From an uncultured Hormoscilla sp. (lineage in GTDB: Bacteria > Cyanobacteriota > Cyanobacteriia > Cyanobacteriales > Desertifilaceae), in the NCBI GenBank assembly GCA_963921275.4, contig OZ001293.3:2496001-2560000 (forward strand): DNA of 64,000 bases, given 5' to 3'. The notes under the pieces are model-generated. The model made no database searches. It had not been told where the DNA came from and was given only the letters and a program-made list of their open reading frames with translations. A program made the translations under genes and the position numbers. Shown piece by piece: positions 14,468-46,712 of this stretch. Numbering within the stretch: the stretch's first letter is position 1; each line of letters begins with the position of its first letter.

Positions 14468-14594
14468 CGTGTCTCCTGGGTAGTGCGACTAGCGCGCTGT
14501 GCCTCCCGGGCGGTGCGACTACGATGTTTCTCGGGTAGTGCGGCGCTCCCGGGAAACATCGAGCTTTCGGGAGACACAGCACCAGGAGAAACGG
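14468..14594 (+). repeat. Triple-nested hairpin repeat (GTCTCCTGGGTAGTGCG..CCCAGGAGAC family)
   Basis: Three concentric stem pairs are readable. Confidence 0.8.
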
Positions 14595-14636
14595 CACCCC
14601 CCACTTGTTGCTGAATAGCCTACTTTCCTTATGCTA

Positions 14637-14789
14637 ACTCAAGTTGCTACCTATAAAAAATTCTACCTCTCAAACAGCCATTTTTGGTAAATATATCCGC
14701 AAAAATGCCATTTGGGGGTAAATTATAAGGCGATTTTAGCCGATTTTGGCTAATTTTGGTGTTAAGTTTCTATAGGTAGCAACTTAGGT
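14637..14789. mobile_element. MITE, IS982-like ends
   Basis: TIRs ACTCAAGTTGCTACCTATA / TATAGGTAGCAACTTAGGT; 7-bp TSD TATGCTA. Confidence 0.8.
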
Positions 14790-14927
14790 TATGCTACTAT
14801 ACAGTAGTTCCTTGGACACATCCTTACCCTTGGCCCCGCCAGTGCCAGTTTACCATTGCTAGCCCTCTGACCGCGAGCCAAGCTTGTTTTCTATCTTATC
14901 CTATTTTACAGAGAGTTGAAAATTATT

Positions 14928-16214
14928 ATGTCAGAGAGCTTATTTGCTGATGCCAGTCTGAGACTGGAAAAAGCCTTAAAACATGCGGAAATTTCCCCTG
15001 ATGCGAGCGAGCGCTTAAAGTTTCCCAAGGCTAGTTTAAGAGTGTCAATCCCGGTGCGCCTGGATGATGGTTCCTTGCGGGTTTTTCAGGGCTATCGGGT
15101 CCGGTATGATGATACCAGGGGACCGACGAAGGGGGGCATCCGCTATCATCCTAATGTAAACATGGATGAGGTGCAATCCTTGGCTTTTTGGATGACCTTT
15201 AAGTGTGCGGTGCTAAATTTGCCCTTTGGTGGGGCCAAGGGGGGCATCACGGTCAACCCCAAGGAGTTGTCACGGCTGGAGTTGGAACGGTTGTCTCGGG
15301 GCTATATCGATGCGATCGCCGACTTTATTGGCCCCGATATTGACATTCCGGCGCCGGATGTCTACACGAATGAAACGATCATGGGTTGGATGATGGATCA
15401 ATACAGCATCATCCGGCGACAGCTGACACTAGCGGTGGTGACTGGTAAACCCATCACCCTGTCCGGCAGTGCGGGCCGGAGGAAGGCCACGGCCATGGGG
15501 GCTTTGTTTGTGATTGCAGCTATTCTGCCCAAGTTCAACCAGTCTCCCCAGGATACCACAGTAGCAGTGCAAGGTTTTGGCAATGTGGGGGCGACCCTAG
15601 CTGAGTTACTCTGTAATGCTGGCTATAAGGTGGTGGCGGTGAGTGATTCTCGCGGGGGTATTTATGCCAAAAAGGGGTTAGATATAAGCAGCGTGCGCAG
15701 ATATAAGGAGGCAACTAAAGGCATACAAGCTGTCTACTGTAAGGGTACTGTTTGCAATATTGTCGAACATGAAGTGATTAGTAATGCCGATCTGTTAGCC
15801 TTGGATGTGGATCTGTTGGTTCCGGCGGCTTTGGAGAATCAAATTACGGAGCAAAATGCCGATGATATTAAGGCTAAGTTGATCTTTGAACTGGCCAACG
15901 GACCGATTACTTCGGGGGCTGATGAAATTTTAGCAAGGAAAGGGATTCAGGTTTTTCCTGATATCTTGACCAATGCTGGTGGGGTGACCGTGAGTTATTT
16001 TGAATGGGTGCAAAATCGGAGTGGACTCTATTGGACGGAGGCGGAAGTAAATCAGCGGTTGCAAGCTAAGATGGTGGAAGAAACTGAGAAAATCTGGGCG
16101 ATCGCGCAAAGACACGCTGTTTCTATGCGGACTGCTGCTTATATTCATGCCCTACATCGGATCTCAGAGGCGATCGATGCTAAGGGGACGCAAAGCTATT
16201 ATCTCAGTCGCTGA
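14928..16214 (+). CDS. gdhA: Glutamate dehydrogenase
   Basis: GPTKGGIRY, LPFGGAKGG, DIPAPD, VQGFGNVG and NAGGVTVSYFEW motifs. Confidence 0.95.
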   Translation: MSESLFADASLRLEKALKHAEISPDASERLKFPKASLRVSIPVRLDDGSLRVFQGYRVRYDDTRGPTKGGIRYHPNVNMDEVQSLAFWMTFKCAVLNLPFGGAKGGITVNPKELSRLELERLSRGYIDAIADFIGPDIDIPAPDVYTNETIMGWMMDQYSIIRRQLTLAVVTGKPITLSGSAGRRKATAMGALFVIAAILPKFNQSPQDTTVAVQGFGNVGATLAELLCNAGYKVVAVSDSRGGIYAKKGLDISSVRRYKEATKGIQAVYCKGTVCNIVEHEVISNADLLALDVDLLVPAALENQITEQNADDIKAKLIFELANGPITSGADEILARKGIQVFPDILTNAGGVTVSYFEWVQNRSGLYWTEAEVNQRLQAKMVEETEKIWAIAQRHAVSMRTAAYIHALHRISEAIDAKGTQSYYLSR

Positions 16215-16232
16215 AGGTAAGCGATCGCTCCG

Positions 16233-16410
16233 TTCGATATCTCTGCCGGTGTTCTTGTCCCAAGGGACATGGCTGCGCCCCCAGCGCAGCGCTATCGGCA
16301 CACAGGAGACATCGCCGTCTCCCTTGTCACGTAGGACGGGCGAGACTCCTGTCATTCGATATCTCTGCCGGTGCTCTTGTCCCAAGGCACTCGGCACACA
16401 GGAGACATCG
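16233..16410 (+). repeat. Two copies of a TTCGATATCTCTGCCGG..CAGGAGACATCG repeat; the first has a nested mini-insert
   Basis: Direct comparison of the two copies; inverted relative at 6996-7053. Confidence 0.75.
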
Positions 16411-16419
16411 ACTTTTCGG

Positions 16420-17400
16420 ACCTCTCATATATGTAGCTGCTCCTCGGTGCATTTTTCCCAATTTGGGAATTTTTTCTTGAATTTATTTCAGCTTAATTTC
16501 TTGTTCTTCTTTAATGTTTTCTTGATTTTTTATGAGCTTTACTTTTATTTAATACCGATGATATCTCTTCTTTTTATGACTTTCTCTTAAGTTTTTTAGC
16601 TTCATTCTTGATTTGTTTTCGACAATTATCTAGCTCTTCATTTACTTGCTTAGTCACACGGTCAGCTATAACTTCAGCATTAGGCATCAATTCTTCCACT
16701 AAACTTTGATACGGTTTCCACATATCTATACTCACTTCTTCAATACCATTCAACACCTCGGGACTCCATGATAGCAAGACTTCTCGCAGATATTCTTGTC
16801 GCCGAGACTTCACTATTTCCAGAAGTTTGCTATTCTCAACATCCACGTCTCCTGGGTAGTGCGAATAGCGCTCCCAGGAGACACGGCTAAAACAGCTAAA
16901 TAATTACCTTGTCCTTTTACCAATGCAATTTCATCGATCCCTAGCTTTTTTAGTTCGGTTCAATTTTCACCTGTCCCGATAGCATTTGTTGAACCTCAGA
17001 TTCTTTTAAGTCATACCGAAGCGCTACATTAATAATATCCCCATTTAATACTTCTCGAACCACTTGTTATCCCAGTCTCTTCGTATATTTACGCCGACCT
17101 TCTACGTATGACAATTTCTCACGGTTTCAAACAGCGAGCGCACGGCGATTGATTTTGAGAAAAACTTTTTTTCTCCCCAGAGCAAATCCTTAATTAAATA
17201 ATTATGGTTCTGATACAAGACTTTTTTGATGACATCTAGGGCAAATTGCTTCTTTTTTTTCTGCCTCAATTGTTATCATCACTTCTTTTAAATGAGTCTC
17301 AGTATACCCGACAACTTTCACTTCTGGAATGTTTAACAATGTTGTTAGTATTTTTAGATTCGAGCGTGGCATCTTATAAATTCTCCCTGTTTTCGCGCCT
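16420..17400 (-). mobile_element. ISL3-family transposase remnant
   Basis: LGIDEIALVKGQGNY and EVSIDMWKPY..MPNAEVIADR; boundaries approximate. Confidence 0.8.
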
Positions 17401-17640
17401 CTATGTTATACCACAACTAGTTGCTGAATGTCAAGCTGGAAAAGGTTTTCCGGTTTTCAGGATCTCCCGTTGAGCGGGCGCATCAACTTCAAGACCTATT
17501 TTAGCATACTAGATTGAGAAGAACCCAAATTAAAAGCAATCAAAAAAATCTTCGCACCCAAGGGGAAGTGGTGCGGCACAACCAGAAAATGAGTCTGCTG
17601 GATGCGAACAATCAGAATTCGGGAGAAGTGGTAGGTTAGG

Positions 17641-17803
17641 TTGAGGAATAGTGAAGCCAGTTTCTTTGGACAAAATCAAGAAATGTACTACACAGACGAT
17701 CGTTACAATAGCTTTCAAGAAGTATTATTGCAGCCTCGAGTAAAAAGAGGTAAAAATGAATCAAAATATCCAAGTTCTGGAAACATCTGCCCTCAAACCT
17801 GAA
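17641..17803 (+). pseudogene. C-terminal remnant of a barnase/RNase Sa-like ribonuclease
   Basis: Hand translation GQNQEMYYTDDRYNSFQEV resembles the family motif YYTxDHY; lies upstream of barstar once the IS630 is removed. Confidence 0.55.
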
Positions 17804-17843
17804 TTGGGGATTGACCGGCAGTATCACTTGACATAGTGTGAGA

Positions 17844-18819
17844 TATAGCATTTCTCAAAATGGTGAGGACAGTAGCAACAATGTGTAAAAAAGTTGTATA
17901 GGTCTGACAAACTAACATTTTCAAAACCATCAGTAATTGCATCAAGCGGTTCTCGGTGACATTTTTTTCTTATAGCTCTTTAGCTGCGATCAAAAGTTCT
18001 CAATTGGAGAAAAATCGGGAGAATAAGGAGGTAGATAGACTAACCGCGCACCTACTTGTTCAATAGCTGCTCTTATGGCTTTTCCATTATGTATTGTACA
18101 TCGGTCGATGACCAGGCTTTTTTCCATAAACGAGGAACTAAATGTCTAACTATAAAAGCTTCAAAAGTTAAGCTATTATAAGAACCTAAAATCTTGAATG
18201 AACTCACTACTCTCTTAAGACGCTCCGACTATCGAAACGTTTTTTCCTCGCTTACTTGGCTTACTTCCATGGGCTCTTTGACCACATGCGACCTACGTGT
18301 TAAGTTAACACCGGATTCCTCCAAGAAGATCAAGTCAAAAGGGTCTATTCCTTCTATTTCTTTCCAGTAGTCTACCCTTAATTTTTGGACTCTATCACTT
18401 CTTTTCTCTGTTGGATGTAACGCTTTTTTTTTGATGGTAAATCCCAACTTCTTTATCATCCTATCTATTGTCGAACGGCTGACCACCGGTCTCTTTTTCA
18501 AGACTAGATTGATCTTCTTCTAAGGTCCAGTCATTATTTTCCTTTACTAAATTATGAATAATTGCCAGTTCTTCATCCTTAAGTTTTCGTGGACGACCAG
18601 GACTTTTCTTAGGTAATAAATTGCCGCCGATCCTGCTGGATGATTTTGGTAACAAAACTTAGAGCTACCCTAAATCTGCCCGCCAGTTTTCTTTGTGATA
18701 TATTCTCATTTTTATAGACCGATTTTTTGGCCTAGATCTACTGAATAGGGTTTCATGGCTTTCTCTTCCATATATTCTTGACTCTCTTATTGTACCTCAT
18801 GTTTTTGAGAAATGCTATA
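17844..18819 (-). mobile_element. IS630-family element, frameshifted transposase
   Basis: TIRs TATAGCATTTCTCAAAA / TTTTGAGAAATGCTATA; LPPYSPDFSPIEN motif. Confidence 0.9.
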
Positions 18820-18868
18820 ATATATTATCACATATGTCAAGTGATACTGGAAGCAGATAATCCCAAAA

Positions 18869-19192
18869 ATGATTGCCGAACTGTCCGGGCATGGCATTCA
18901 GGTATTCTATCTGGATGGGAGAGAAATTTCGGGCAAAGCGGAATTTTTAAGCCAAGCGGCTAAAGCAATGAAGTTCCCTGCCTATTTTGGGGCTAACTGG
19001 GATGCCCTTGAAGAATGTATCACCGCTCTAGAATGCGGTCCCGCCCAGGGATATATCATAATCTATGATAGGCCCGATGTTTTCGCCGCTGCTGACCCCG
19101 AACAGTGGCAAATAGCCCTGGACGTTTTGCAATCAGCAGTTGAATACTGGCGAGCGCAACAGATACCTATGGATGTGTTCTTGCTCAATTAA
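18869..19192 (+). CDS. Barstar-family ribonuclease inhibitor
   Basis: FPAYFGANWDALEEC signature. Confidence 0.9.
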   Translation: MIAELSGHGIQVFYLDGREISGKAEFLSQAAKAMKFPAYFGANWDALEECITALECGPAQGYIIIYDRPDVFAAADPEQWQIALDVLQSAVEYWRAQQIPMDVFLLN

Positions 19193-19232
19193 TATCGTGG
19201 CGATCACATGTACCGGCGATATGCGATCGCCC

Positions 19233-20084
19233 TCAACCCAACGGATAATTTTCTCGTTGATTTTGTTGCAGCAACCAATAGCAAAACCCCGATAAAAGCA
19301 TAATGGGGATGGTAGAAAAAATTTGGGCGTCGTCGGAGTGCCAGTATTCATAGAGAGGATAATTGTAAGCTGCGAAAAGCACCAGAATAGGAATGCGGAA
19401 AATGCCATTAAACAGCCAAACGATCGTCACAGCGACGATGGGAACGAGAAACTTTTGCCAGAACTTAGTCGGGTAGGTGACTAAAAACAGCAGGGCGAGT
19501 TGCAACATCCACGCGATCGTCACTACACAGTTAGGTCCTATCCAGACATTGATTTGGGGCGTAATAATTGTATCCCCTTGACTAGCGACATCAAACCCGA
19601 CGTACCAAAGGATAAAGGTAGAAAATTTAGTCATTAAGACATTAACATTGGTTAGCTGATTAATGGGTTCCACCAACCTTTCTACAGGAACCGCGAGAAC
19701 CAGAAACAACATCAGTTCTTGCCAATATTGCTTTAACCCTTTGATTCCAGAAACTAAAAGCGCTAGACTGAAGGCAGAAATAAAGGGTAAGCAGCGGATT
19801 AACAGGTCATAATTGGGGAGGATGGGACTGTTTTTGAACATCAAGGCGATGATGCAGATGCTTAATATGCGTGCAGCTAGTTCACTTTCCAGATTGAAGG
19901 AATGAGAATTATTCTTGAAGCGGAAGGCGATCGCCCCTGTATATAATATAGTTGTCACTTGCAGGTTAGTGAGTCCCGCTTTACCGACTAAGTTGAGGTT
20001 CAGACCCAGGATAGTTACAGTGAAAGTCAACAACCAGAAGTTTGTGGTTGACAGGCGTTGAATTACACTCGAGAATATTTTCAT
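19233..20084 (-). CDS. Exosortase-family protein (cyanoexosortase A-like)
   Basis: Multi-TM; GLKQYWQEL; Cys (GPNC), Arg (NGIFRI) and His (YEYWH) at catalytic positions. Confidence 0.8.
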   Translation of the reverse strand: MKIFSSVIQRLSTTNFWLLTFTVTILGLNLNLVGKAGLTNLQVTTILYTGAIAFRFKNNSHSFNLESELAARILSICIIALMFKNSPILPNYDLLIRCLPFISAFSLALLVSGIKGLKQYWQELMLFLVLAVPVERLVEPINQLTNVNVLMTKFSTFILWYVGFDVASQGDTIITPQINVWIGPNCVVTIAWMLQLALLFLVTYPTKFWQKFLVPIVAVTIVWLFNGIFRIPILVLFAAYNYPLYEYWHSDDAQIFSTIPIMLLSGFCYWLLQQNQRENYPLG

Positions 20085-20126
20085 TTTTCTGACTTTGGCG
20101 CGATGTCTTTCATGCATGTGCGAATA

Positions 20127-20369
20127 CGATGTCTCCTGGGTAGTGCGATTAGCGCGCTGCATGTCCTAGGTAGTGCGACTAAGTAGTCATGCAAAATTAA
20201 TTTTATATCGAATCCACCTGCAAAGCTCGATCTGCGCGGATTTCATATAAAATTAATTTTGCTGAGGTACTTACAGCGCGAGCGGTCTCTCATGCATCTG
20301 CGACTACGATATTTCTCGGGTAGTGCTTCTAGCGCTCTTCGGAGACATCGAGTTCCCGAGAGACACCGC
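20127..20369 (+). repeat. Nested hairpin-repeat cluster containing a TA-flanked MITE (20180-20273)
   Basis: GATGTCTCCTGGGTAGTGCG units; inner TIRs TAAGTA..GCAAAATTAATTTTATAT / ATATAAAATTAATTTTGC..TACTTA. Confidence 0.75.
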
Positions 20370-20492
20370 GGCTATCCTGGGTTTATAGTGGAAAAAGTAT
20401 TGCAATATACAATTTTGCCCTATAAGAAAGGCTGAAACCCTTGATTTTGTGTAATCATAAGCTTTACTTATCACCCAAAACCCAGGAGACCC
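20370..20492. mobile_element. MITE with GG..TCCTGGGTT ends (ISL3-like)
   Basis: 8-bp TSD GACACCGC; inverted sibling at 50916-51038. Confidence 0.8.
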
Positions 20493-20572
20493 GACACCGC
20501 TTTGTAATGCTACCATGATAACTCAAGTTGCCATAAATTTTATGGCTTGACATAAAATTTAATAAAATTCTA

Positions 20573-20693
20573 GGCGTTGCACATTTTGGAGATGATGCCC
20601 TTTTTTGCACAAGCTACGCTACTGAAAATGGCTTGTAGTCTAAGTTTGAGAGTTCTGAAACTATCTCCATCATCTCGTCCGAAGTGCAACGCC
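20573..20693. mobile_element. MITE with GGCGTTGCAC ends
   Basis: 8-bp TSD AAATTCTA; related ends near 35960 and 37119. Confidence 0.8.
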
Positions 20694-20829
20694 AAATTCT
20701 AATTGGTTCTGTATGACAATAAAAAGTGATGGCGGTTGGATGGCACTGGTTCAGTCTGCTTAAGAAGCTAAAATCTTTGATACATAAAGGTTAGAAGCTC
20801 ATCGACAGTTAGATAATTTCTTCCCAAGT

Positions 20830-21065
20830 CAGACCTCTTTTCAAGATCCCTAATGCCAGAGGACTTGTCCAGTTGTAAAATAAGGTCTAACAAAATTATG
20901 AATAATCCAGAAAATATCTAAAACTTTTTGTCGGCCTTCCTGACTCTGTAAGTATTAATGCGACGAATAAAAGCAGACAAATAGCGTCGTAGAGAACTGT
21001 TAAAGGCTTTTACATGTAGGCCAAGAACTTCGGAATTTTCAACAGAGATAGTTGTCCGAGGATGC
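20830..21065 (-). pseudogene. Transposase C-terminal fragment (cyanobacterial IS1-like)
   Basis: HVKAFNSSLRR and FWIIHNFVRPYFTTGQV. Confidence 0.55.
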
Positions 21066-21281
21066 AGGGTAAGCACAAGAATCAATAAGGGGCATCTATT
21101 CTCAACTCTCTGATAATGATTGCCAGATTATTGCTAATAATCCATACTATTGAGAATTAGCCTGGATCCATACCACATTTTGGCACAGTTTTTCTTGCGC
21201 TTGCCCTGGATCGCTTCTTACCCCTAGCCAAGCCCAAAAACAAAAAAGCTTCCACCCAAAACCCTTAATTGTCCGTTGTCC

Positions 21282-22700
21282 GTGTGATTCGTTTGGTGGT
21301 CCCCCACGGTGGGGGACCACCAGCAGGATTCCATTAGCCCTGACAACTTATAGATGATGTGGGTGCAAGCCCCACCCTCCAGGTGCAGGAGTGACAGCAC
21401 CTTCCCGGCGGTAGCGATGGCATCAATCCGTAAAGCGGGAAGGAAAGGCGCACGGCTGGCGCCGCGCTGCGCGATCTGGCTGGCAGCCCTAAAACCGGTC
21501 ATCGTCAAGCAAGTAGCCATGGTGAACGCAAGTGAAGGCTCACAAGTGTCGTTAGACATAACCAGTGAAATAAGGCTGATACACTGGCCCCAAAAGGGGA
21601 AGGATATAGGTCGCTGGCCAATGGGCAATGGACGCACCGACAACAAACCCGGCATAAAGAGTCCACCTAAAGCTACAACCAATCGTCTATAGGAACGAAG
21701 TAACCCGGATATGTACTCTCTACCAAGGTCGATAGGTAGAGTAGCCACCAAAGGCGCAACATCTGCTTCCATCAGGCAGGTCATAACCGGGAAGGATTGA
21801 GTGGAGGAGCAAACGCCTATCTGTAATGGATAGGATAAGCTGACGCCCTCACGGTGAAGTGAAAAGTAGAGTTGCAAGTAACAGCACAAAAGTTATGAGC
21901 ACGGTAAATCAACCGATGTATGAATGGAACGCAATCCCCTGGCGCAAGTTGGAGAGGAGAGTGTTTAAGCTGCAAAAACATTTCTACAAAGCGGCACAAC
22001 GTGGCGATAAGCAGAATGTCCGCAAACTCCAGAGATTACTAACGAAGTCCTGGTCAGCAAAATGCCTGGCCGTGCGACGGGTAACACAGGATAATAATGG
22101 CAAAAACACCGCCAGCGTTGATGGGGTCAAAACTATTAGCCCTAAAGAGCGCCTAGAGATGCGCATGGTTGAAAGCCGGTGTGGTAGATGTAGGACAAAT
22201 ACAACCAAGGTCGATAGGTAGAGTAGCCACCAAAGGCGCAACATCTGCTTCCATCAGGCAGGTCATAACCGGGAAGGATTGAGTGGAGGAGCAAACGCCT
22301 ATCTGTAATGGATAGGATAAGCTGACGCCCTCACGGTGAAGTGAAAAGTAGAGTTGCAAGTAACAGCACAAAAGTTATGAGCACGGTAAATCAACCGATG
22401 TATGAATGGAACGCAATCCCCTGGCGCAAGTTGGAGAGGAGAGTGTTTAAGCTGCAAAAACATTTCTACAAAGCGGCACAACGTGGCGATAAACAGAATG
22501 TCCGCAAACTCCAGAGATTACTAACGAAGTCCTGGTCAGCAAAATGCCTGGCCGTGCGACGGGTAACACAGGATAATAATGGCAAAACACCGCCAGCGTT
22601 GATGGGGTCAAAACTATTAGCCCTAAAGAGCGCCTAGAGATGCGCATGGTTGAAAGCCGGTGTGGTAGATGTAGGACAAATACAGACACCCGAAGGTAGT
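21282..22700 (+). mobile_element. Group II intron A, 3'-truncated, with deleted RT and a 482-bp tandem duplication
   Basis: 5' GTGTGATTCG; domain I collinear with intron C; RT0 YEWNAIPWRKLERRVFKLQK; no D5/D6. Confidence 0.85.
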
Positions 22701-22774
22701 CAACTGGCAGGATCCACGCCCGGACTGCAGCCAGTTGAGCGAAAATAACTGACCGGTGTCTCTGGAGTAGTGCG

Positions 22775-23609
<835 letters not shown>

Positions 23610-23735
23610 TTTACGATGTCTTCTGGGTAGTGTGATTAGCGCCCCCAGAAGACATCGAGATATCCGGAGACACCGGAAGCAACGCTAGTCCAATCGCTAA
23701 ATTTTTACCCGATTTTTATCCCGCGCCACCGATCG

Positions 23736-24173
23736 TTAGTCACCGAGCGCTGACACTAGGGCATGTAACCCCAGCCGATAACTTTCTGCACCAAAGCCAC
23801 TAATTTGCCCCACTGCCACCGGCGCTATATATGAATGATGGCGGAAGCTTTCACGGCGATAGATGTTGCTGAGGTGAACCTCCACCGTCGGTATGGCCAC
23901 TGCGGCGATCGCATCTCTAATAGCCACGCTAGTATGGGTATATGCTCCAGCATTGATCAGCAACCCTACATAGCGACCTCGGGCCTGATGGATCGCATCT
24001 ACCAAAGCACCCTCGTGGTTCGACTGGAAGCTTGACACCTTTACCTTAAGCGAGCGCGCTTCCGAATCTAGGAGGCGATTAATGCCCTCTAGGGTTAAGC
24101 TACCATAAATCTCTGGTTCTCGTTGACCCAATAGATTTAGATTTGGTCCATGCAGTACTAAAACCTCTAACAA
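23736..24173 (-). CDS. aroQ: Type II 3-dehydroquinate dehydratase
   Basis: [26 protein letters not shown] and EVHLSN motifs. Confidence 0.97.
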
Positions 24174-24201
24174 AATCCTCCTCCCAAATCAAGGAAGACC
24201 A

Positions 24202-24342
24202 CTACCGATGCCTGCTTTCTGGATCTTTTACTGGGATGGGAATCAGCTCCGGTTCTGGCTGGACATCTGGTCCGACTAGCGCTTCTATGAGCTTGCGAGC
24301 CCATTCCTTAATTTTTTCCAGTATCTTGTCGATGTAGTCCAT
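24202..24342 (-). CDS. 46-aa small protein absent from the ORF track
   Basis: SD AAGGAG; MDYIDKILEKIKEWARKLIEALVGPDVQPEPELIPIPVKDPESRHR. Confidence 0.7.
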   Translation of the reverse strand: MDYIDKILEKIKEWARKLIEALVGPDVQPEPELIPIPVKDPESRHR

Positions 24343-24435
24343 TAATTAAAAGCTCCTTCACTATAGCCTGTTCTCGCTACTTAAGAGTGATACCCGTCAT
24401 CCCTTACACTCTTTACTCGATCATAACGAATATTC

Positions 24436-25719
24436 TCAAAGATCGACAAACCTGGTTTTTGTCTCCTCTCTGGTTGACAATTGGCGTCGCAGATGGTCAA
24501 GAGCACTGCAAGCGCTCCGGTGACGAATCATATCCCTGTCTTGCTGCGAACCAAAACGATGCTTAAAGCTCTGTACGCCGTCAGCAGCAGCCAGACCCAC
24601 ATAAACTAATCCTACTGGTTTGGACTCTGTACCGCCTCCTGGTCCAGCAATCCCCGTAATACTCAGTCCCCAGGTAGTCCCCATCAGCTTTTGGACTCCC
24701 ATAGCCATTTGCTGGGCGACAACATCACTTACAGCTCCCGAAAGGGCCAACTCTGCGGGATTTACACCCAGCTGGTCAACTTTCACCTGATTGTCATAAG
24801 AAATGATCCCGCCCTGGAAGTAATTAGAGCTTCCAGCCACCGTGGTAAGCATACTACCCAGACCTCCACCGGTGCATGATTCAGCAACGCTTAGGGTTTC
24901 ACCCGCCGCCAGCAGCAGCTTTCCCACCACTTCTGCCAGAGTTTCGTCATCAGCACCATAGCAGTTTAGTCCGCCAATCTGTCGCAGCTTTTCTTCCACT
25001 GGCGAAATCCGTTGGCGGGCCGTCTCTGCTGAAGAAGCTTTAGCACTGATGCGTAGCTTCACCTCTCCCTTCCCCGCATAGGGCGCAACTGTGGGGTTGG
25101 GCATATCTAGGATGGACGGTGGGATCTTTTCTACTAAAGCTGATTCTCCAATACCCCAAAACTTTAACGTCCGACTGTAGATTATTTCTTTACCCCAGCC
25201 CTTACTTTTTAGATAGGGTACAGCGGTTTCCCTCCACATCCGGTGCATTTCTGAGGGGACACCCGGGAAGGTAAGAATCGTCAGATCCGCGGGGGGTTGC
25301 CAGATTATACCTGGTGCTGTCCCCGCTGGGTTGGGTAAAACTGAAGCACCCTGGGGAATCAATGCTTGTTTGCGGTTACTGGGGTTCATTTTACGCCCCC
25401 TAGATGCGTATTTTTGGGTAATGTCTGCTAATAACTCTCGCTCCTCCACCAGCGGTACGCCAAAAAAGTCGGCAATAGTTTCGCAGGTAAGGTCATCGGG
25501 AGTTGGTCCCAGACCACCTGTGAATATTAGTATTTTCGCTCCCCGATCGATCGCTATTGCGATCGCCCGTTTTATTCGCTCCCGATTATCACCCACTACC
25601 GTTTGATAGTAGTGCGTAATTCCCAGACTCGCCAACTGCTGGGCTAAAAATTGGGCATTCCTATTGATAATCTCTCCTAAAAGTAATTCCGTTCCTACAC
25701 AAATAATTTCAGCTGTCAT
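24436..25719 (-). CDS. cinA: Competence/damage-inducible protein A
   Basis: GTELLLG, GGLGPTPDDLT, AESCTGG and SITGIAGPGGG motifs. Confidence 0.95.
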   Translation of the reverse strand: MTAEIICVGTELLLGEIINRNAQFLAQQLASLGITHYYQTVVGDNRERIKRAIAIAIDRGAKILIFTGGLGPTPDDLTCETIADFFGVPLVEERELLADITQKYASRGRKMNPSNRKQALIPQGASVLPNPAGTAPGIIWQPPADLTILTFPGVPSEMHRMWRETAVPYLKSKGWGKEIIYSRTLKFWGIGESALVEKIPPSILDMPNPTVAPYAGKGEVKLRISAKASSAETARQRISPVEEKLRQIGGLNCYGADDETLAEVVGKLLLAAGETLSVAESCTGGGLGSMLTTVAGSSNYFQGGIISYDNQVKVDQLGVNPAELALSGAVSDVVAQQMAMGVQKLMGTTWGLSITGIAGPGGGTESKPVGLVYVGLAAADGVQSFKHRFGSQQDRDMIRHRSACSALDHLRRQLSTREETKTRFVDL

Positions 25720-25966
25720 TGTTAATTATTAATTGTTAATTGTTCATGCCTTGCCGATCTATTTAACAATTATAGTTATCTAATCAGCTCTTTGATATTG
25801 CTTCTTTTGACTGTGTCAATCGTTTCTTTTGCTAAAACTAGATTACCCGTGTTTTTCGTTGATTCTCTTAACCACTAACAATGGCAAATTTAAATTGCCA
25901 ATTGCCGCGAATGGGCATAATAAATAATCAACAATTCTCAATTCCCAATGCTCAATTCTTCATACT

Positions 25967-27010
25967 TTACTGTCGAGCTTGCTTTTCAACTTTCCAGGTA
26001 GTGTAACCTAGGAGTAAGGTAGCACCGATCGCGTAAGTCTGACCACCAGGCAGACCAGCGACAGCCAAAGATAAACTTCCCACCCAGAGAGTCAAGGAGT
26101 AAATAAATAAAACCGTTAAACGATGGGAAAGACCAGCTGACAGCAGTCGGTGATGCAGATGACGCTTATCCGCTATAAAGGGCGATCGGCCATTAAGAAG
26201 TCGGTTCAAAATCACAGCTGACATATCCAAAATCGGCACAGCCAGAATCAAGTATGGTAGCACTGCTGCTGTAACAGCAGTAGTTTTGACCAAACCAATC
26301 ACCCCTACTCCGGCCAGGGTAAATCCCATAAAATAAGCTCCGCCATCTCCCATAAAGATCTGAGCTGGGTTAAAATTATAGCGCAGAAATCCCAAACATC
26401 CCCCCGCTAGGGCAGCGGCAATTAAGGCCGCTGCTGGTTGAGCCATAAACAAGCTGACAACCAACATTACCACGGCGGCAATTCCCGAGACTCCTGCGGC
26501 TAGACCATCTAGACCATCGATCCAGTTAATCGCATTCACCATTCCCACTAGCCAAATCACAGTGATTGGCATTGAGATCAAGTCTGGTAGAGAGACTAGA
26601 CCAGCAAAGGGAATTGTGATAAACTCGATTTGCACTCCCACATTCCAGGCCCAACTAGCGATGATTACCTGGATCAGGAGTCGAGAGAAAGGCGAGAGAC
26701 CGAATAGGTCATCTGCTAGGCCAATCAGGAAAAAGGCCAGACTGCCAACCGTGACTCCCCAAACCTCATACTCTTTATCTGGGGGCAAAACGCCAAAGCC
26801 TCCCGCCCACCATACTACCAATAGGGCTCCAATTGTACCTAAAAATATGGCCATACCCCCTAAGCGTACCATTGGCGCAGAGTGAACTTTCCGTTTGTCA
26901 GGGATATCCACCCGCCCATTTTTTAGTCCTATTTCCTTGACTATTGGCGTGGTTGCTAGGACAACCAAGGCCGATACTATAAAGGCAACTAGGTGGTACA
27001 ACTGGTAAGG
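25967..27010 (-). CDS. MraY/WecA/TagO-family polyprenyl-phosphate GlcNAc-1-P transferase
   Basis: NAINWIDGLDGLA, IFMGDGG and HLHHRL motifs. Confidence 0.92.
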   Translation of the reverse strand, partial: PYQLYHLVAFIVSALVVLATTPIVKEIGLKNGRVDIPDKRKVHSAPMVRLGGMAIFLGTIGALLVVWWAGGFGVLPPDKEYEVWGVTVGSLAFFLIGLADDLFGLSPFSRLLIQVIIASWAWNVGVQIEFITIPFAGLVSLPDLISMPITVIWLVGMVNAINWIDGLDGLAAGVSGIAAVVMLVVSLFMAQPAAALIAAALAGGCLGFLRYNFNPAQIFMGDGGAYFMGFTLAGVGVIGLVKTTAVTAAVLPYLILAVPILDMSAVILNRLLNGRSPFIADKRHLHHRLLSAGLSHRLTVLFIYSLTLWVGSLSLAVAGLPGGQTYAIGATLLLGYTTWKVEKQARQ

Positions 27011-27306
27011 CATCTGAAACTCAGCTTGGGAGCTATACATTCATTTGCATATGACAGTTATATACAGAACTCTAGATTTTTTGATATTTTCCAGATATTC
27101 GGATATAAATTTAAGCTATTATTTCTCTATAGGCTCACTACAATTGGGTGGAGAGCAATTACAGACTTCATTGAGGGGTACATCTCACTTTTGCTGTGGG
27201 GAATGGTTTCACTCTTTTGCCCAGAAACCCGGTTTTTTGCTCATACCGGGTTTCTTAATTTAAGCATTGAATAGCTTCTGACTGCACTTGGTGAGAATTA
27301 GGCTCT

Positions 27307-37911: not shown

Positions 37912-38382
37912 ATGAAAGAAATAACTATTCAGGCCATGCCACCTTGTTTCGATAGATGGTGCCGTCGTTTTGACGATCTATTTACTCGCCAAGCCCAAGG
38001 AAGAGAGTTCCGTAATTATTTAAGTGGGTTATTAGGAGAAAGTGAGCGAAAAAATATCGCCCAAATGTCAAAAAATACTGTGGGTGTTTCTTATCATAAA
38101 ATGCATCACTTTATAACCGAATCTCCTTGGGATGCTGATTGTGTGAATGAAAGGCGATTAGAGATAATGACGCTCTGCCGTCAAACAAAACCTAGGCAAA
38201 ATTTTAGCTTAATAGTGGACGATACAGGTCATCGCAAAAGCGGAACAATAACTGAAGAGGTAGGCGGTGTCACTTGACAGGCATGAGAATATAGTATCTC
38301 ATGCCTGTCAAGTGACACCGGGAAGACAATATATTGGGGAAGTTGGCAAAACTGATAATGGTCTTGTAATGGTAACAACCTA
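37912..38382 (+). pseudogene. IS701-family transposase N-terminal fragment
   Basis: FRNYLSGLLGESERKN, DDTGHRKSG and RQYIGEVGKTDNG motifs. Confidence 0.85.
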
Positions 38383-38383
38383 C

Positions 38384-40882
38384 ATTCCGCACGACAAATG
38401 TATTACATATTTAACATTGGGGACTATCAACTCTTCTCTTGGATTAAAAATAGAGACAAATATGACTCCTGATTCCCTTATTTAACCTAAAAATTTCTAC
38501 TTACCTTCAACGAGTAACCTACTTGATAGAACGGTACTAAAATTTACTTAAAATTGCTCATCATCAAGTTACTCAGAGGTGCATTTCCCCCAAGCAATAC
38601 TTTGAAGTAACGTTTTTTTTAACAAGATTTAAATTAGTAAATAGTACCGCGCTCCATGCTGGAGGAAAGAATTTCAAAAAGTGTAAACGCTCCTCATTAA
38701 TATTTGAAATCTGTTTAATGCCGTGTTCGATATAGATATGTATTGACTGAAAACATTGAAATATCCAACGCAAAGTTGGTCTATCAGTCAAACGACCTAA
38801 CTGATTTTTTACTCCTGAACCTGTCCGTTTAAGCGTCTTCCTTATCTGGGCCACCTTATACACTAACAAAGATAACGCCATAATTAAATGCTTCTATCCG
38901 CTTTGGGGATTTGAGAAATACACTATCTGCAAAAAACATCGGGTCTTTCAGAAAAGCAAAACATCTTTCTACTGACTGTTGTTTATTTTTGTATGTAGAC
39001 AGCATTTTTTCCGAAGTTAACGCATCAACATCGAGCACGTTCGTTGCTAAAATAAACCTACCGGCCTGTTTTTTTAACTGTTCTACTTTTTCTGAACAAA
39101 TACTAACAGTTGCTTGAATTTGATAGTGGCAGTCTGAGGAACCCTTCTCATCTTTTATTAAAATCGGCTGGGTCTTCCGTCAATTGATGAAATCTTGACT
39201 TCTTTAATAGCTTATTAGCTGCTTTAATAGCATCCGGTTTGCAAGCAAATTGTTGCTTTCTTAACTCTTTTAATTTCTTTGACGCAACTTTTGACTCTTT
39301 TTTTATTTTTTCCTCTAACCTCTTAAGGTCTGCTTCTCTACGTTTTTGACTTTCAACAACTAGCCACCAATGTTGCAACTTAAAATAACGCTCCACGCTG
39401 CTCGTTTTTATATGTGGAGAGCATTTTTTCTGAATTTAGCGCCAATTGATCGAGTTGATTAATTGCTAAAATAAAGCCTCGGTTTTTTTGATGTTGCATT
39501 TGCTCGATACATTCACTAATAGTTGCCTTGATAGTGGCAAGAAGAAGAACCTGTGAAAATGGATTGAGTTTTTATTTCGGTTAGTTCACGATGATTTTTT
39601 TAATAGCTTCTTTGCAGCTATTATAGCATCCGGGTCACAAGGAAATTCCCGAGAACTTAATTCTTTTAATTTCTTTTGGGCAACAGGTAAATATTTGTCG
39701 ATTTTATCCTCTAATTTTGTCTGATTCCCGACGACTTTCAATCAACTAGTCATCTTTGCTCTATATCTCCATAGTTTTGCTTTACTTCTAGGTAACGATA
39801 TCCCACCTGCTCGTAAGAGATAAAATTCTCTGTATCCGCCTCCGTGACTAACTTATTGGCTGCTTTAATAGTAAGTATAACTCGCGATAACCACTTGACA
39901 TCACCTAAGATTTGCAAATTTTCTTGCGTATATAATGCTGCATCAGCTACCATTAATCCTGAAAATTAAAAGGTTTTTTTGAACTCTGTTATTGCTGAAT
40001 TTCTTTTTGGTCTGATGCATTTCCATCTCCCATCTTCATCCATAAGGGAATAGCTCCATCTCCTGAACAAATCAACTGCATTGTATATTGTTTTAAGTTT
40101 GGTCTCTGGGGGAGCATCTCAGATTTGTGAATCAACAAGCAATAAGATTATTTTAGATTTGAGATTCCCGATTTGAGATCGTCACGATCTCAGAATTTAT
40201 AGATTGAGAAAACTAGCTCTGTGCGGGACTTTCAGGTTTACCAAATGCAAGCCAGCAATTAGCGAGAATTATTGCCAAAGCGCAAAAGTGAGATGCACCC
40301 GGTCTCTGGTCTCTATCCATGTGTTATTTTTATCGGTCTAGGTGAGACAACTTTCACCTCTACTTCTGATGTTTTGTATTCTCCATGAACATGAAATGAA
40401 CTTAAATCGTGCTGTTTCCCTTTTGATTTGAGATTTTTTTAATACCTCTAACACCACTAAATATTTCTCCAATCAAGATCGCAGATATTCCGGTTTGACT
40501 CCAACTCCAATTAAGTGTTAAGCATGCTTTTCCCTCAAAAAATCTGGTAAACAGGTATAAGGGTGCTGACACTAATCCTAAAGCATTTATTATCATTGCT
40601 TTAACAACTTGACCAGAGCTGATTTTCTCTAATGAGTGTTTTTCCAATCGCCGGTTAATTATCGATTCTATTCCTATTTCATCGATGATTCCGGCCACTA
40701 ATCCCAGATGCTCTAGATTGGCAATTTCCATCTGCAAGTATCTGAACTTCTTTCACGTTCCCTTGTAACTCAATTTTGGGATTTTGGGGCAAATTTTTTC
40801 CTATCCTGAGTATTTATACTCAATTAAGTACTACATTTGTCGCACAGACATGGTATATTACAATTTGTCGTGCGGAATATGG
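38384..40882 (-). mobile_element. IS1634-family element, decayed, with partial internal duplication and a nested MITE (40110-40300)
   Basis: TIRs ATTCCGCACGACAAAT; HLGLVAGIIDEIG, VADAALY and FLKDPMFFADSVFLK motifs; MITE has 9-bp TSD GGTCTCTGG. Confidence 0.85.
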
Positions 40883-41250: not shown

Positions 41251-43670
41251 GTGCGATTCGTTTAGAGTAAAATGACTTGACACGTGTCAAAAAAGGGGAC
41301 CGCTAGCAGGGTTTCAATAGCCCTGACAACTTACAGATGATGGTGGTGAAAGCCCACCCCTCCAGGTGCTCTCGTGACAGCATCCTCCCGACGGTAGCGA
41401 TGGCATCAATCCGTAAAGCGGGAAGGAAAGGCGCTCTAACTGGTAGCCTAAACCGGTCATCGTCGAGCAAGTAGTCATGATGAGCGCAAGCAAAGGTTCA
41501 TAAGTGTCGTCAACATCAACCAGTGTAATAAGGCTGAGACACTGGCCCAAAAGGGAAAGGATAATGGTCATTAGCGGTTGTAATCCGACTAATAAGCACT
41601 GACAACAAACCCGGCATATAGAATCCATCTAAAACTACGATTAATCATCTGTAGGAACGAAGTAACCCAGCTAGGCACTCTCCATCACCGGTCGATAGAT
41701 GGAGTAGTCACCAAAGACGCAACATCTGCTCTCATTTGGCAGGTCATAGCTGGGAAAGATTGAGTGGAGAAGCAAACGCCTATCTGTAATGGATGGGATA
41801 AGCTGACGCCCTCACGGTTTTGTCAATTGTGAAGTTGTGAGTAGTAGTTAATATGTCACGGAACTTAGCCGAAAAGCAAGAGTATGAATGGAAGGAGGTG
41901 CCCTGGCAGGAGCTGGAGCGCCGATCGCGCTAGCGTGGCGCCAGCCATGTCTTCAAGCTACAAAAGCGAATTTACAGAGCGGCACAGGAAGGCAACAAGC
42001 GGAAAGTTCGCAAGCTCCAAGGGTTACTAAATAGGTCATGGTCCACGAAGATGATAGCGGTGAGACAGGTAACACAACAAAACCAAGGAAAGAATGCGGC
42101 TGGTGTGGATGGTGTGAAAGCACTGACTATGGAGCAGCGACTGGAACTGGTAAGTCAGCTCAGAGTATCCAGGAAGGCAAAGGCGAAACCTACACTGCGT
42201 GTATGGATACCTAAGCCAGGAAGGGACGAAAAGCGGCCACTAGGAAGACCGACGATGCACGACCGCGCACTTCAGGGATTGGTCAAACAGTCGCTTGAGC
42301 CCGAATGGGAAGCGTACATGGAAGCCAATTCCTACGGATTCAGACCAGGAAGGGGATGCCACGATGCGATCGAAACGATATTCACCAGCACCAACAAGAA
42401 ACCAAAATGGGTGTTAGATGCGGATATTGCGAAATGTTTCGACAAAATTGACCACTCAGCGCTCCTAGAGAAATTGAATACAACATCACCAATCCGTAGA
42501 CAGATACGGGCATGGCTAAAAGCCGGGGTGATGGACCAGGGAATATGGCAGGACACAGAAGCCGGAACTCCTCAAGGCGGAGTAATATCACCATTGCTAG
42601 CCAATATAGCCCTACATGGGTTGGAAAAGGTAGTGATGAGTCTTGCCCGCACAAAGAGAGAGGAAAAGAAACTAACGATAGTCAGGTACGCCGATGATTT
42701 TGTGGTAATGCACGATGACCGGTCAATGATTGAGCGAGCACAAGGAGTGATTGAGGAGTGGTTGAAGGGAATAGGACTAGAGCTAAAAGCCGAGAAAACC
42801 AGGATATCCCACACACTGGAAGGAGAAAACCCCGGATTTGACTTCCTAGGGTTCAATATCCGACAATACAAAGTAGGGAAACACAGAAGCGGCAAACTCA
42901 GCAACGGAACCCCCCTAGGATTCAAGACCCTAATCAAGCCTAGCGATAAATCCATTAGGAATCATAAAGAGCAACTATCACAGATAGTTCGCCGCCATAA
43001 ATCGGCACCACAGACAGCCTTGATAGTCAAACTAAACCCAATGATAAGGGGATGGAGCAACTACTTCAAGACGGTGGTAAGTAAGGAAACTTACAGCGAC
43101 ATGGATAGCTACCTATGGGAGCTGCTGTGGCAATGGGCAAAGAGAAGGCATCCCAATAAATCGGGCGAATGGATTGCCAAAAATTATTGGGCCATGACCG
43201 GTAAGGACCGGTGGAGGTTCATCGGTAAATCCAAGAAAGGAGAAATAAAGCTAATCCGGCACTCTGAAACTGAAATAATCAGACACACAAAGGTAAAGGA
43301 AACAGCTAGCCCGCTTGACGGTAACCTAGTCTACTGGAGCCAGAGATTACGAAAGAGCCCGGACGTAAGCATGAGAGTGATTAACCTGCTCAAGAGGCAG
43401 GATGGCAAGTGCCAGCATTGCGGACTAACGTTTAAGGACGGCGACAAATGGGAAGTGGACCACATCCTGCCAACCTCACTGGGAGGTAAGGACTGGTACT
43501 CCAACCTACAGTTGCTGCACGACTACTGCCATGATTATAAATCTGCCAGGGATGGCAGCAAAGGCCGTATCCATGACAAGGATGACGAAACTGAGGAGCC
43601 GGATGAGGTGAAAGTCTCACGTCCGGTTTTGAAGACGAGTCGGTACGGTGACGTACTGGCTTAGTTTAAT
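41251..43670 (+). mobile_element. Full-length group II intron C
   Basis: 5' GTGCGATTCG; D5 GAGCCGGATGAGGTGAAAGTCTCACGTCCGGTTTT; D6 ending TTTAAT. Confidence 0.95.
41853..43664 (+). pseudogene. ltrA: Intron RT/maturase/HNH endonuclease with in-frame TAG at 41931
   Basis: PQGG, YADD, maturase RGWSNYF and HNH CQHC..DHI motifs; ATG 41853 in frame with ORF 42051. Confidence 0.9.
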
Positions 43671-44561: not shown

Positions 44562-44987
44562 TTAAGCGGTGGCGCGAGATAGCTGTGAAGCTTGGATGCA
44601 ACCGCCCAACCACCTTTCCTCTCCAGCGGGTGCATAACTTGCCCAAACCTCTCCGTTCTCCTTGGCCTGATAAAAGCTAGTGATTCTCGCTTTGGTCGCA
44701 AACCCCATCACTTCAACCTGCACCAGATCTCCAGGACGGAATTGTTTTCCCTCGGAATTAGTCGCCGAGAAAACAATTTTCAGTTCAAATTTCTTTTTTT
44801 CCGATTTTAGCTGCGGTCGCGGCTTCGGTCTGGTAGGTTTCTGTGTCAGAGAAGTTGGTCTCGCTGGTGGCGCGGTAAGCTTCTTCTCTCGTTCAGGCTG
44901 ATTTGCTGCGGTCGGTTTCTGCGCCACTTCAGCGTCAGCATCCGATTGGGGCGGTCTTTTGGGCTTTCTTAAACCAACTATTTCCAT
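44562..44987 (-). CDS. Hypothetical protein (Pro/Lys-rich N-terminus, small C-terminal domain)
   Basis: 141-aa ORF co-oriented with mnmA. Confidence 0.6.
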   Translation of the reverse strand: MEIVGLRKPKRPPQSDADAEVAQKPTAANQPEREKKLTAPPARPTSLTQKPTRPKPRPQLKSEKKKFELKIVFSATNSEGKQFRPGDLVQVEVMGFATKARITSFYQAKENGEVWASYAPAGEERWLGGCIQASQLSRATA

Positions 44988-45103
44988 GATTGTGCGATCC
45001 TAAATCCTGACTGGGAAAAGCTGGAGACCAATTCATCCTGACCTTGGATATCTCCAGCCTCCTTTATGTTAACAGGCTCGCGATTGGCGGATCAACATGA
45101 AAT

Positions 45104-45191
45104 GTGGTCAGTGGTCAGTGGTCAGTGGTCAGTTGACAGTGGTCAGTTGATAGTGGTCAGTTGTCAATTTTTAATTTTTAATTTTTAATTG
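45104..45191. repeat. Heptameric STRR-like tandem repeat (GTGGTCA)n
   Basis: Visible tandem array; similar arrays at 9575-9665, 31554-31600 and 35826-35860. Confidence 0.85.
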
Positions 45192-46244
45192 TCAGTTGCG
45201 ATCGATAATTCCTCCACCCAACACCAGGTCTCCATCGTACCAAACAGCCCCTTGACCCGGAGTAATGCTGAACTGGGGTTCGTCAAACTCTAACCTGACT
45301 CTACTCTTTGCTAAAGGAATTACTGTCACTGGTGCTGCTGGGGAACGATAGCGGATCCGGACTTGGGCCCCAATGGGTCCATCTGGTGCGGATATGGACA
45401 CCCAGTTGACCCTACTTACTGTACAGTGAGAATTTACCGCTTGCTCCCGAGTCCCGACTATCACTCGATTCATGACTGGGTCCAGTCCCGTTACGTACAA
45501 GGGTTCACAGTAGGCTATCCCCAGTCCCTTCCGCTGACCGATCGTATAATGATGAATGCCATTGTGTTGACCCAGTACCTTTCCGGACTGGTCAACGATA
45601 TCCCCTGTCTTCTGATTAATGTATTTGTCTAGGAACGCCTGCATGGAACCATTGGCTTCCACTAGACATAAATCCTGACTTTCTGGCTTATCAGCAGTTA
45701 ACAGTCCCAACTCTGCGGCGATGCGCCTGGTTTTGGTCTTGGGGACTGACCCCAGGGGAAATACTGCCGCTGCCAGCAACTCCTGGGGTAGGTCATACAA
45801 AAAGTAGGACTGGTCTTTGGTCAGGTCCACCGCCCGTTTTAGCTGATAACGTCCATTATCCCGATTATAGCTCACTCGCGCATAATGCCCAGTCGCGATC
45901 GCCTCTATTGACAAATGCGATCTGGCATATGCGAGTATGGGGCCAAACTTGACTGCCTTGTTGCATTGAGAGCAAGGCAGGGGCGTGATGCCGTTGCTAT
46001 AGCCCGATACCAGATAATCTACTATATTAGCCTGGAAGTCTTCCCGGCTATCGACAATATGATGAGGAACACCCAGCTGGGAGCAAATGCGGGCCGCATC
46101 AAGCATTCCCTCAGAGCAACATTGTCCCTTGCCCTTCATCAGCCAGAGGGTGAGACCGACAACTTCGTATCCTTGATGATGTAGGATGGCGGCGGCGGTC
46201 GAACTATCCACCCCACCCGAGAGCCCTACTACTACTTTTTTCAT
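45192..46244 (-). CDS. mnmA: tRNA 2-thiouridylase
   Basis: [28 protein letters not shown] and TPGQ motifs. Confidence 0.97.
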
Positions 46245-46593
46245 GGACCTGCTATACTTTCAAAGGGATCGACTTGAGCTTAAGGTCGAAGAATCTGTCA
46301 TTGCGAGGGGGGGATCCCAAAACCGCAACTGTGGTCAGCACCACAGGGAGACTCCCCCCTCGGAACGCGCAGCAGCTCCATCGTGGGTAAGCAGGAGCGC
46401 TCTTCATCTCCTGCTCAGCGTGCGGAGATTGCTTCGCTAGCGCTCGCAACGCTGCGCGTTCCGGGGGGTGTTACTCCTAAAGAACTTGGATATCGTTATT
46501 TAGCTCCCCCCTCGCTCCGGAGATATTGGCTGCATTCGCTCAGCGCAGTTCCTGACCCTTCGTAGTATATCTGCTGTAGACTGCTTGCCAGTC

Positions 46594-46712
46594 GCTGTGT
46601 CTCCCGGTGCTGAGTCTCCTGGTGCTGCATCTCCTGGTCGCTCGATGTTCCCCGGGAGCGCTAACCGCACAAAAGGAGGGACATCGTAGTCGCACTACCC
46701 GAGAGACACAGC
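46594..46712 (-). repeat. Nested hairpin-repeat cluster abutting the 3' end of intron D
   Basis: Reverse complement GCTGTGTCTCTCGGGTAGTGCGACTACGATGTC. Confidence 0.75.

Follow-up and report, generated by a model that had tools for sequence, protein, structure and literature searches.

The DNA analysed here, called the window below, is a stretch of 64,000 nucleotides (nt) from an uncultured Hormoscilla sp. (assembly GCA_963921275.4, contig OZ001293.3, positions 2,496,001 to 2,560,000). It carries repeated copies of a small hairpin unit, some standing alone and others arranged in concentric nests in which one copy lies within the loop of another, together with several group II introns. All window copies are intergenic and lie between Pfam-supported genes, and one nest sits between convergent genes at 29621 and 29821. 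A first-pass annotation, made from the letters alone, had listed single copies and nests and proposed a self-nesting, possibly RNA-mediated mobile unit related in behaviour to the small dispersed repeats (SDRs) of cyanobacteria. The unit, its single copies and its nesting stand, two of the listed nests need correcting, and the interpretation as a whole is partly supported. The copies and the elements within or beside them are given here by window position; bits refer to the covariance model described below, and fold z compares a predicted fold with those of shuffled sequences.

2124–2168, minus strand: single hairpin unit of the CGATG...CATCGA type (73.2 bits; fold z −8.69)
14467–14594, plus strand: three-layer nest (RNA fold z −8.45, DNA fold z −7.18; ortholog in locus L053)
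14467–14495 and 14581–14594, plus strand: outer halves of this nest
14496–14521 and 14563–14580, plus strand: its middle halves
14522–14562, plus strand: its inner unit
16846–16885, plus strand: single hairpin unit with CGT...ACG arms (59.7 bits; fold z −6.78)
20101–20369, plus strand: decayed nest with five 5' halves and only two 3' halves
20182–20271, plus strand: 90-nt insert resembling a miniature inverted-repeat transposable element (MITE), with an 18-nt perfect inverted-repeat core, within a GACTA unit loop
22753–22774, plus strand: 5' half of a host unit, ending in GTAGTGCG
22775–23614, plus strand: group II intron I1 (840 nt), without an open reading frame (ORF), in the loop of this host unit
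23614–23658, plus strand: inner unit of the intron-bearing nest (model match 23609–23664, 52.7 bits)
23659–23676, plus strand: 3' half of the host unit
29681–29820, plus strand: three-layer nest (RNA fold z −5.36; ortholog in L016)
30651–30733, minus strand: degenerate two-layer nest
46594–46715, minus strand: nest of two layers, then two orphan 3' arms (model match 46636–46691, minus, 52.8 bits)
46716–47722, minus strand: group II intron I4, without an ORF, adjoining the preceding nest with its 3' end

Both single units are confirmed, as are the concentric three-layer nests at 14467–14594 and 29681–29820. These two nests fold as concentric helices that none of 200 RNA shuffles equals, and the four DNA folds of their two strands give z values from −4.6 to −7.2. 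The interval 22753–23676 is indeed a two-layer nest, but not one of 900 nt: its loop holds the 840-nt intron I1, the last base of which is shared with the inner unit as its first C. The feature first placed at 20127–20369 is a nest that truly starts at 20101, includes the 90-nt MITE-like insert (TA flanks at 20180–20181 and 20272–20273) and lacks its outer 3' halves; a complete inner unit (20302–20357) and one further 3' half are kept. The one given as 46594–46712 has two layers and two orphan 3' arms, and folds weakly (46592–46716, minus; z −2.46; 3 of 200 shuffles as good). The nest at 30651–30733 is degenerate and folds no better than shuffled sequence (30648–30736, minus; z +0.17; 107 of 200 shuffles as good).

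The unit is a non-coding hairpin of 42–46 nt, too small to encode anything, as had been noted. Its lower stem of about 14 bp, with a typical arm CGATGTCTCCYGGG and its complement, is separated by a bulged T from an invariant apical stem, AGTGC/GCGCT, which includes one T.G pair and closes on the apical loop GANTA. The Hormoscilla hairpin is real, far above chance and strongly covarying. Its 22-nt core (up to three mismatches) has six matches in the window against 0.00 expected, the maximum in 100 shuffles being zero. In 36 complete units, chosen by the apical motif, 91.8% of cells are paired against 78.3% in shuffles, a percentage biased upwards because the units were hand-picked for having both arms; none of 500 shuffles reaches the observed value. 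Sliding the partners by one to three columns leaves only 28–55% paired, and 13 of the 19 pairs show changes on both sides, so the compensatory changes first noticed in the window are borne out, with the structure conserved. G.T pairs are not significantly commoner than A.C in the lower stem (17 cells against 11, p=0.34), and hence this stem shows no strand-specific (RNA) signal. Arms fall into subfamilies that are found again at unrelated loci, with outer arms such as CGAT/ATCG, CCGT/ACGG, CGGT/ACCG, GCTGC/GCAGC and GAGCG/CGCTC.

A covariance model built from the 36 units (length 56 with flanks, the hairpin itself being about 42 nt) identifies seven complete window units with E<1e-6, at 2118–2173 (minus), 14517–14568, 16838–16893, 20302–20357, 23609–23664 and 29735–29790 (all plus) and 46636–46691 (minus), plus two bare host cores. 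No Rfam family matches the units at its gathering score over the whole window, nor at E≤1 over 14000–31000.

We scanned a species-level collection of 185,579 genomes with an 18-mer and kept loci for holding it. At least 68 loci were returned; among the matches listed, 55 come from four Hormoscilla metagenome-assembled genomes (MAGs), and the 13 others are singles from unrelated phyla, without the hairpin, that we take as chance. By our own arithmetic, about 70 chance matches to the 18-mer would be expected over the whole collection. The covariance model has 114 matches at E≤0.001 in the at least 68 listed loci and none in the 13 non-Hormoscilla ones. Among the matches listed, the repeat is thus seen only in Hormoscilla, a sponge-symbiont cyanobacterium placed in the order Gomontiellales. 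No listed locus is identical to the window, which shows 94–97% identity to SP12CHS1 contigs. With 47.1% G+C and 32 occurrences of HIP1 (GCGATCGC), the window looks cyanobacterial. In a plasmid collection, no nest found a match and the intron matched by domain V only.

The nests follow a grammar, which we surveyed across the window and some 963 kb of Hormoscilla DNA. There, GTGCGANTA is followed by GCGC or by CGATGT, and GTGCGANTAC by GAT in 29 of 31 matches (29 unique junctions), so that copies of the CGATG type start directly 3' of a host GANTA loop. At a second type of junction (six unique, two of them orthologous), copies of the GCTG, GAGG or GCGG type start directly 3' of TAGCGC. The host 3' arm mostly begins exactly 16 nt past the inner 3' arm. 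Free units carry TAG rather than TAC (TAG has 92 matches, TAC 31), and free copies of the CGATG type are mostly followed by A. Among 112 clusters of cores, 88 hold one core, 17 two, six three and one five. The claim that copies lie in the loops of older ones in the same orientation holds in 23 of the 24 multi-core clusters, the one mixed case being an inverted loop in L016. Inner arms are also better paired than host arms, with means of 2.3 and 3.3 mismatches per 12 (Wilcoxon p=0.007; better in 15, equal in 10, worse in four) by a crude, ungapped measure in which some rows are orthologous. New copies, then, stand co-oriented inside resident copies at fixed points, and the inner copies are the better paired.

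Recent mobility, as first proposed, is visible between Hormoscilla genomes. Comparison of 22 orthologous locus pairs, with 126 indel rows of at least 15 nt, yielded three sites at which a whole unit is present in one genome and absent from the other. The cleanest is L045:12541, where a 45-nt unit is absent in L057; the 30 nt to either side match exactly and no junction bases are duplicated. The other two are L058:3301 (46 nt, opposite orientation) and L041:~4301 (62–64 nt), and in each case the other genome lacks the unit. Orthologous sites thus differ by entire hairpins with both arms, and show no target-site duplication. Two empty alleles had seemed to keep a 3' arm, so we considered that the arms might be copied from the target flank, and rejected this when realignment showed the whole unit to be absent at L041:~4301. 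The other allele, at window 30662–30732 (71 nt, absent in L016, where the outer 3' arm alone is kept), stands as a difference that we interpret as either a deletion or a solo arm.

Resident copies change in other ways. Relative to the window, L016 has the innermost 16-nt loop (29751–29766) of the nest at 29681 inverted and a block change, CGGGTA to CCTTTT, in its middle layer; a similar exchange of GGGTA and CTTCT separates L041 from L058. One unit in L041 and L058 has common arms and different loops, and L012 and L061 have common outer arms around entirely different interiors. Two ortholog pairs show one compensatory double change each (G:C to T:A, C:G to A:T); matching by exact flanks recovered five pairs, four identical and one with a double change, too few for statistics. 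The nest at 29681–29820 and its ortholog differ in 22 of 140 columns, while their flanks differ in 39 of 1721 (p=7e-11), and that at 14468–14594 in 13 of 127 against 33 of 591 (p=0.07). In L045 and L057 an inner 3' arm is present without its 5' arm, and L026 lacks 100 nt between GGGAACG direct repeats relative to L030; orphan arms are explained by deletion between stacked direct repeats (cores or arms). Other elements also enter unit loops: besides intron I1, these are the insert with TA flanks and a hairpin of about 27 nt, which takes the place of GANTA. Once formed, nests decay by direct-repeat deletion that leaves orphan arms, by loop inversion and by secondary insertion of the TA-flanked MITE, the 27-nt hairpin or a group II intron.

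Several of these companions form families of their own. The MITE-like family (termini AGTAGT...GTACT, TA flanks) includes, besides window 20182–20271, copies at L064:6724 (153 nt) and L064:11609 (102 nt), both polymorphic between genomes. The 27-nt hairpin (CTCGTTCCCAGGC...GCCTGGGAACG) occurs at L041:387–463, L058:16083–16174 and L041:4294–4370 and in L005, L010, L018 and L050; in some units it stands in place of the GANTA loop, and in other copies it precedes GTGCGANTA, replacing the usual GGGTA arm end. The ortholog comparison also revealed a 15-nt word (ACCGTTCCGGAAAAA and its complement), present or absent at at least five sites (L021:4395, L019:4858, L035:4838, L053:2810, L053:3695); the loci hold 38 copies of it in about 1 Mb and the window none, and it looks like an even smaller mobile insert. 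GC-rich elements of 22–24 nt are present or absent at CGAT^CG sites, which resemble the HIP1 core (L030:3196, 3691, 3859 and 3903; L004:2896; L045:10094; L048:7781). Four of them are polymorphic between L030 and L026, which recalls SDR5, an element that inserts into HIP1 (PMC4390886). Longer hairpin families are present or absent at L048:11719 (116 nt), L061:10101 (72 nt), L019:6704 (93 nt) and L041:3551 (54 nt), and one such family (arms CGGTGTCTTCCGCATGC...) also lies within intron I4, at window ~47130–47220.

Intron I1 shows the hallmarks of a group II intron, with domains V and VI, a 5' GUGYG end and pairing between exon-binding site 1 (EBS1) and intron-binding site 1 (IBS1) in the 5' exon. 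It begins with GTGCGATTCG, contains no ORF of 100 aa or more, and matches Rfam RF00029 at 23531–23608 with 42.2 bits against a gathering score of 40. Near intron position 338 lies an EBS1-like CGCACT, complementary to AGTGCG, which is both the last six bases of the I1 5' exon and the conserved loop motif of the hairpin unit. In the same place, I4 has an EBS1-like GTACTC complementary to its own 5' exon end, GAGTAC. Ordinary EBS1–IBS1 pairing therefore accounts for the placement of I1 in a unit loop, and the host unit concerned had taken up its inner unit before the intron arrived. The window has three Rfam intron matches plus more intron ends; over the window and the loci, 26 matches to the intron 5'-end motif were found, only one of which follows a unit half. 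Some 24 further introns stand at unrelated sites, and all Hormoscilla introns seen begin with GTGCGA. Group II introns are in fact unusually dense in these 64 kb, with one intron bearing a reverse transcriptase (RT)/maturase-HNH gene (ORF 42051–43664) and three ORF-less relatives; the coordinates for the whole set, fragments included, are 41251–43670 (plus), 50733 to ~49860 (minus), 46716–47722 (minus), 22775–23614 (plus), 34345 (minus) and 21859–22221 (plus). The entry at 34345 is a further 5'-end motif, and an RVT_N fragment with intron-like DNA lies at 21322–22088.

Taken together, we read the unit as a non-autonomous hairpin element that is mobile as a whole and prefers the loops of resident copies, and we put the probability of this reading at roughly 0.6. 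A structure-specific enzyme, encoded elsewhere, would act in trans and move the unit as a folded single strand. The preferred landing site would be a resident copy in extruded or single-stranded form, at its unpaired apical loop, and this preference would explain why the element nests in itself. As intermediate, we lean to single-stranded DNA rather than RNA, given the lack of target duplication, the strict orientation and the absence of strand asymmetry in the arms. A more specific version would have the folded strand transpose without duplication into its own loops, through an enzyme outside the known RAYT and IS200 families or through the group II intron machinery, with the loop doubling as an IBS1 mimic; we propose it tentatively and hold it to be rather improbable in full.

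Several observations weigh against a mobile, loop-seeking element. Hosts that are filled never retain the canonical GCGCT after the insert and carry 4 nt (e.g., AGCG or AGAT) where free units have 5, and uninterrupted hosts of the 4-nt form had no match in the 963 kb or the window, so simple insertion into a canonical unit is not a full description of the junction. Free-standing copies have no common upstream target word, unlike IS200/IS605. No mobilising gene was found: a Pfam run on 56 of the 83 window ORFs of at least 100 aa detected the RT/maturase-HNH protein, the RVT_N fragment, DDE_5 and DUF4277, and no Y1/HUH domain. A crude prefilter with Y1/RAYT motifs, a weak test that covered about 5% of each genome, returned from 1749 ORFs of the 963 kb only three candidates, all E1 dehydrogenases. 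MAG assemblies may misjoin palindromes, so the inverted loop could reflect a misassembly or a population-level effect. Orthologous and overlapping loci inflate the counts, and the loci were chosen for the 18-mer. The covariation units, in turn, were hand-picked for having both arms, and selection by the apical motif means that the four invariant apical pairs carry no information.

The main alternative route for a mobile unit is retro-insertion, in which the unit would be transcribed, folded as RNA with the invariant T.G as a U.G wobble, and copied back into DNA by one of this genome's many group II intron RTs. Elhai and colleagues reportedly proposed RNA intermediates for SDRs in 2008, and RT/maturase genes and ORF-less introns are abundant here, with the three Rfam matches and 26 5'-end motif matches. 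The apical T.G is invariant in 36 of 36 units, though these were selected by that motif, and the top strand folds better than the bottom one (−14.8 versus −12.3 kcal/mol, as DNA). We nevertheless judge this route unlikely, because the lower stem lacks an excess of G.T over A.C, the inserted copies show no A-tail, variable truncation or target duplication, and the introns stand at unrelated sites, with a unit half before just one of the 26 motif matches. For the RNA mediation suggested in the first pass, the lower-stem count gives no evidence either way. Alternatively, nothing need have moved, and errors in replicating palindromes (slippage and template switching within the hairpin), with gene conversion among copies, would have produced the pattern. 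Slippage does shape the nests, as deletions between direct repeats leave orphan arms. In favour of this view are the 100-nt deletion between GGGAACG repeats, the orphan 3' arms left by deletion between stacked cores, the block changes GGGTA to or from CTTTT or CTTCT, the inverted loop and the raised divergence of the nest at 29681–29820. Such errors leave unexplained the insertion of whole two-armed units at unrelated sites, with nothing of the sequence in the ortholog, the identical arm subfamilies at many unrelated loci, and inner copies that retain the termini of free units and share one fixed entry point; slippage, moreover, yields tandem copies, not concentric ones. As a full account we therefore consider this quite unlikely.

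The remaining two explanations appear very improbable to us. One takes the loop GTGCGA...TA(C) as the ghost of a group II intron, with the hairpins as intron homing sites or as intron-derived mini-elements moved by intron ribonucleoproteins. It draws on the GTGCGA start common to all Hormoscilla introns seen, on I1 lying exactly at the GTGCGANTA position of other nests with its EBS1-like CGCACT pairing with the loop motif AGTGCG, and on I4 ending directly before a nest. The C of TAC, however, belongs to the inserted copy (GAT follows in 29 of 31 cases, and this C has its partner in the G of CATCG), TAC is not the form of free units, which carry TAG (92 matches for TAG versus 31 for TAC), and a 6-nt identity is weak. 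With about 24 other introns at unrelated sites, we rejected the ghost as a general rule. The other holds that the hairpin is kept by host selection as a structural or regulatory signal, such as a terminator, an mRNA stabiliser or a protein-binding site. The intergenic position of all window copies and the nest between convergent genes would suit such a role; however, no T-run follows the hairpin in the window copies, no Rfam match at E≤1 was found in 14000–31000, copies occur in both orientations and in various positions relative to genes, close strains differ in the presence of units, and the nests decay.

A mobile hairpin that prefers its own loops resembles the SDRs most closely. In 2008, Elhai and colleagues reportedly described SDR1 to SDR8 of the Nostocaceae, which are 21–27 nt long; SDR4, SDR5 and SDR6 are said to fold into hairpins backed by compensatory changes, SDR1 and SDR4 to occur within copies of themselves in complex nests, and the SDRs in general to have moved recently. 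We know of no enzyme or intermediate identified for their movement since. Like SDRs, the Hormoscilla unit is tiny, non-coding and dispersed in a HIP1-rich cyanobacterial host, and it combines a compensated hairpin (13 of 19 pairs), self-nesting (29 plus 6 junctions) and recent mobility, so the likeness claimed in the first-pass annotation seems apt. It is one of behaviour, and there are differences. At 42–46 nt (45, 46 and 62–64 nt in the whole-unit indels) the unit is about twice as long as SDRs, with their 21–27 nt. No SDR-like repeat was reported outside the Nostocaceae (PMC5861425), whereas this unit occurs in Gomontiellales. SDR5 inserts between bases 3 and 4 of HIP1 (PMC4390886), which the Hormoscilla unit does not. 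We rejected HIP1 targeting because most free copies of the CGATG type have an A next to their 3' end, where HIP1 would have its C.

IS200/IS605 elements and their miniature derivatives are hairpin-dependent and orientation-specific, and insert into single-stranded DNA 3' of a short word without target duplication. Inner copies in nests are similarly placed 3' of GANTA (29 unique junctions); no shared word was seen for free copies, which argues against a strict rule of this type. These elements also have two different end hairpins, as opposed to the single symmetric hairpin here, and we saw no TnpA. MITEs have a target-site duplication, and the Hormoscilla unit has none (L045:12541 versus L057). 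Some group II introns use repeated structured DNA as homing sites; this likeness concerns intron I1, one case among the 26 5'-end motif matches, and not the hairpin. A GTAG word at the hairpin foot is a feature of repetitive extragenic palindromic (REP) sequences, and that of the Hormoscilla unit lies inside the hairpin instead. REPs and REPINs with RAYT (Y1 HUH) transposases are short, imperfect, intergenic, high-copy and non-autonomous palindromes that are considered to be handled as single-stranded hairpins without target duplication (PMC3116915), a route like the one proposed here for the Hormoscilla unit. REPINs are inverted doublets accompanied by a RAYT gene, in contrast to the concentric, co-oriented Hormoscilla copies (L016 is the only locus where a core has a reversed core less than about 40 nt away); no RAYT gene was seen in the Hormoscilla sequence examined, a weak test.

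By this comparison, the family appears to fit the known kind of very small cyanobacterial mobile repeats, larger than SDRs and outside the Nostocaceae. In the papers searched, the 11-nt core word occurs in no relevant text (four unrelated primer matches only), no pertinent report of nested miniature repeats in cyanobacteria came up, and the two Hormoscilla genome papers, in the passages searched, do not mention introns, transposases or dispersed repeats. Elements like SDRs are thus not limited to the Nostocaceae. The unit accounts for some of the repeat content of Hormoscilla MAGs, plausibly also for part of the fragmentation of their assemblies, and it offers fast-evolving strain markers for an uncultured sponge symbiont. 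Because its structure is clear, its entry point fixed and its orientation strict, and because related genomes differ in presence or absence, its insertion rules, polarity and candidate genes can be tested by comparison alone. If single-stranded transposition into its own loops is correct, the unit would be among the smallest mobile DNAs, in an order where such elements are said to be absent, and its conserved loop would act as a dispersed homing site, an IBS1 mimic, for an ORF-less group II intron.

Two further features of the window lie close to the nests and introns. Between intron I2 and the region rich in units, transposase fragments (DDE_5 and DUF4277) occur at 37912–38277 (plus) and 40402–40737 (minus). 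A repeat of about 70 nt (…CTTGATTTTG…ACTTATCACC…AAACCCA(A)GGAGACCCG…) is found at 20430–20500 (plus), downstream of the nest at 20101, and at ~50900–50990 (minus), upstream of intron I3.

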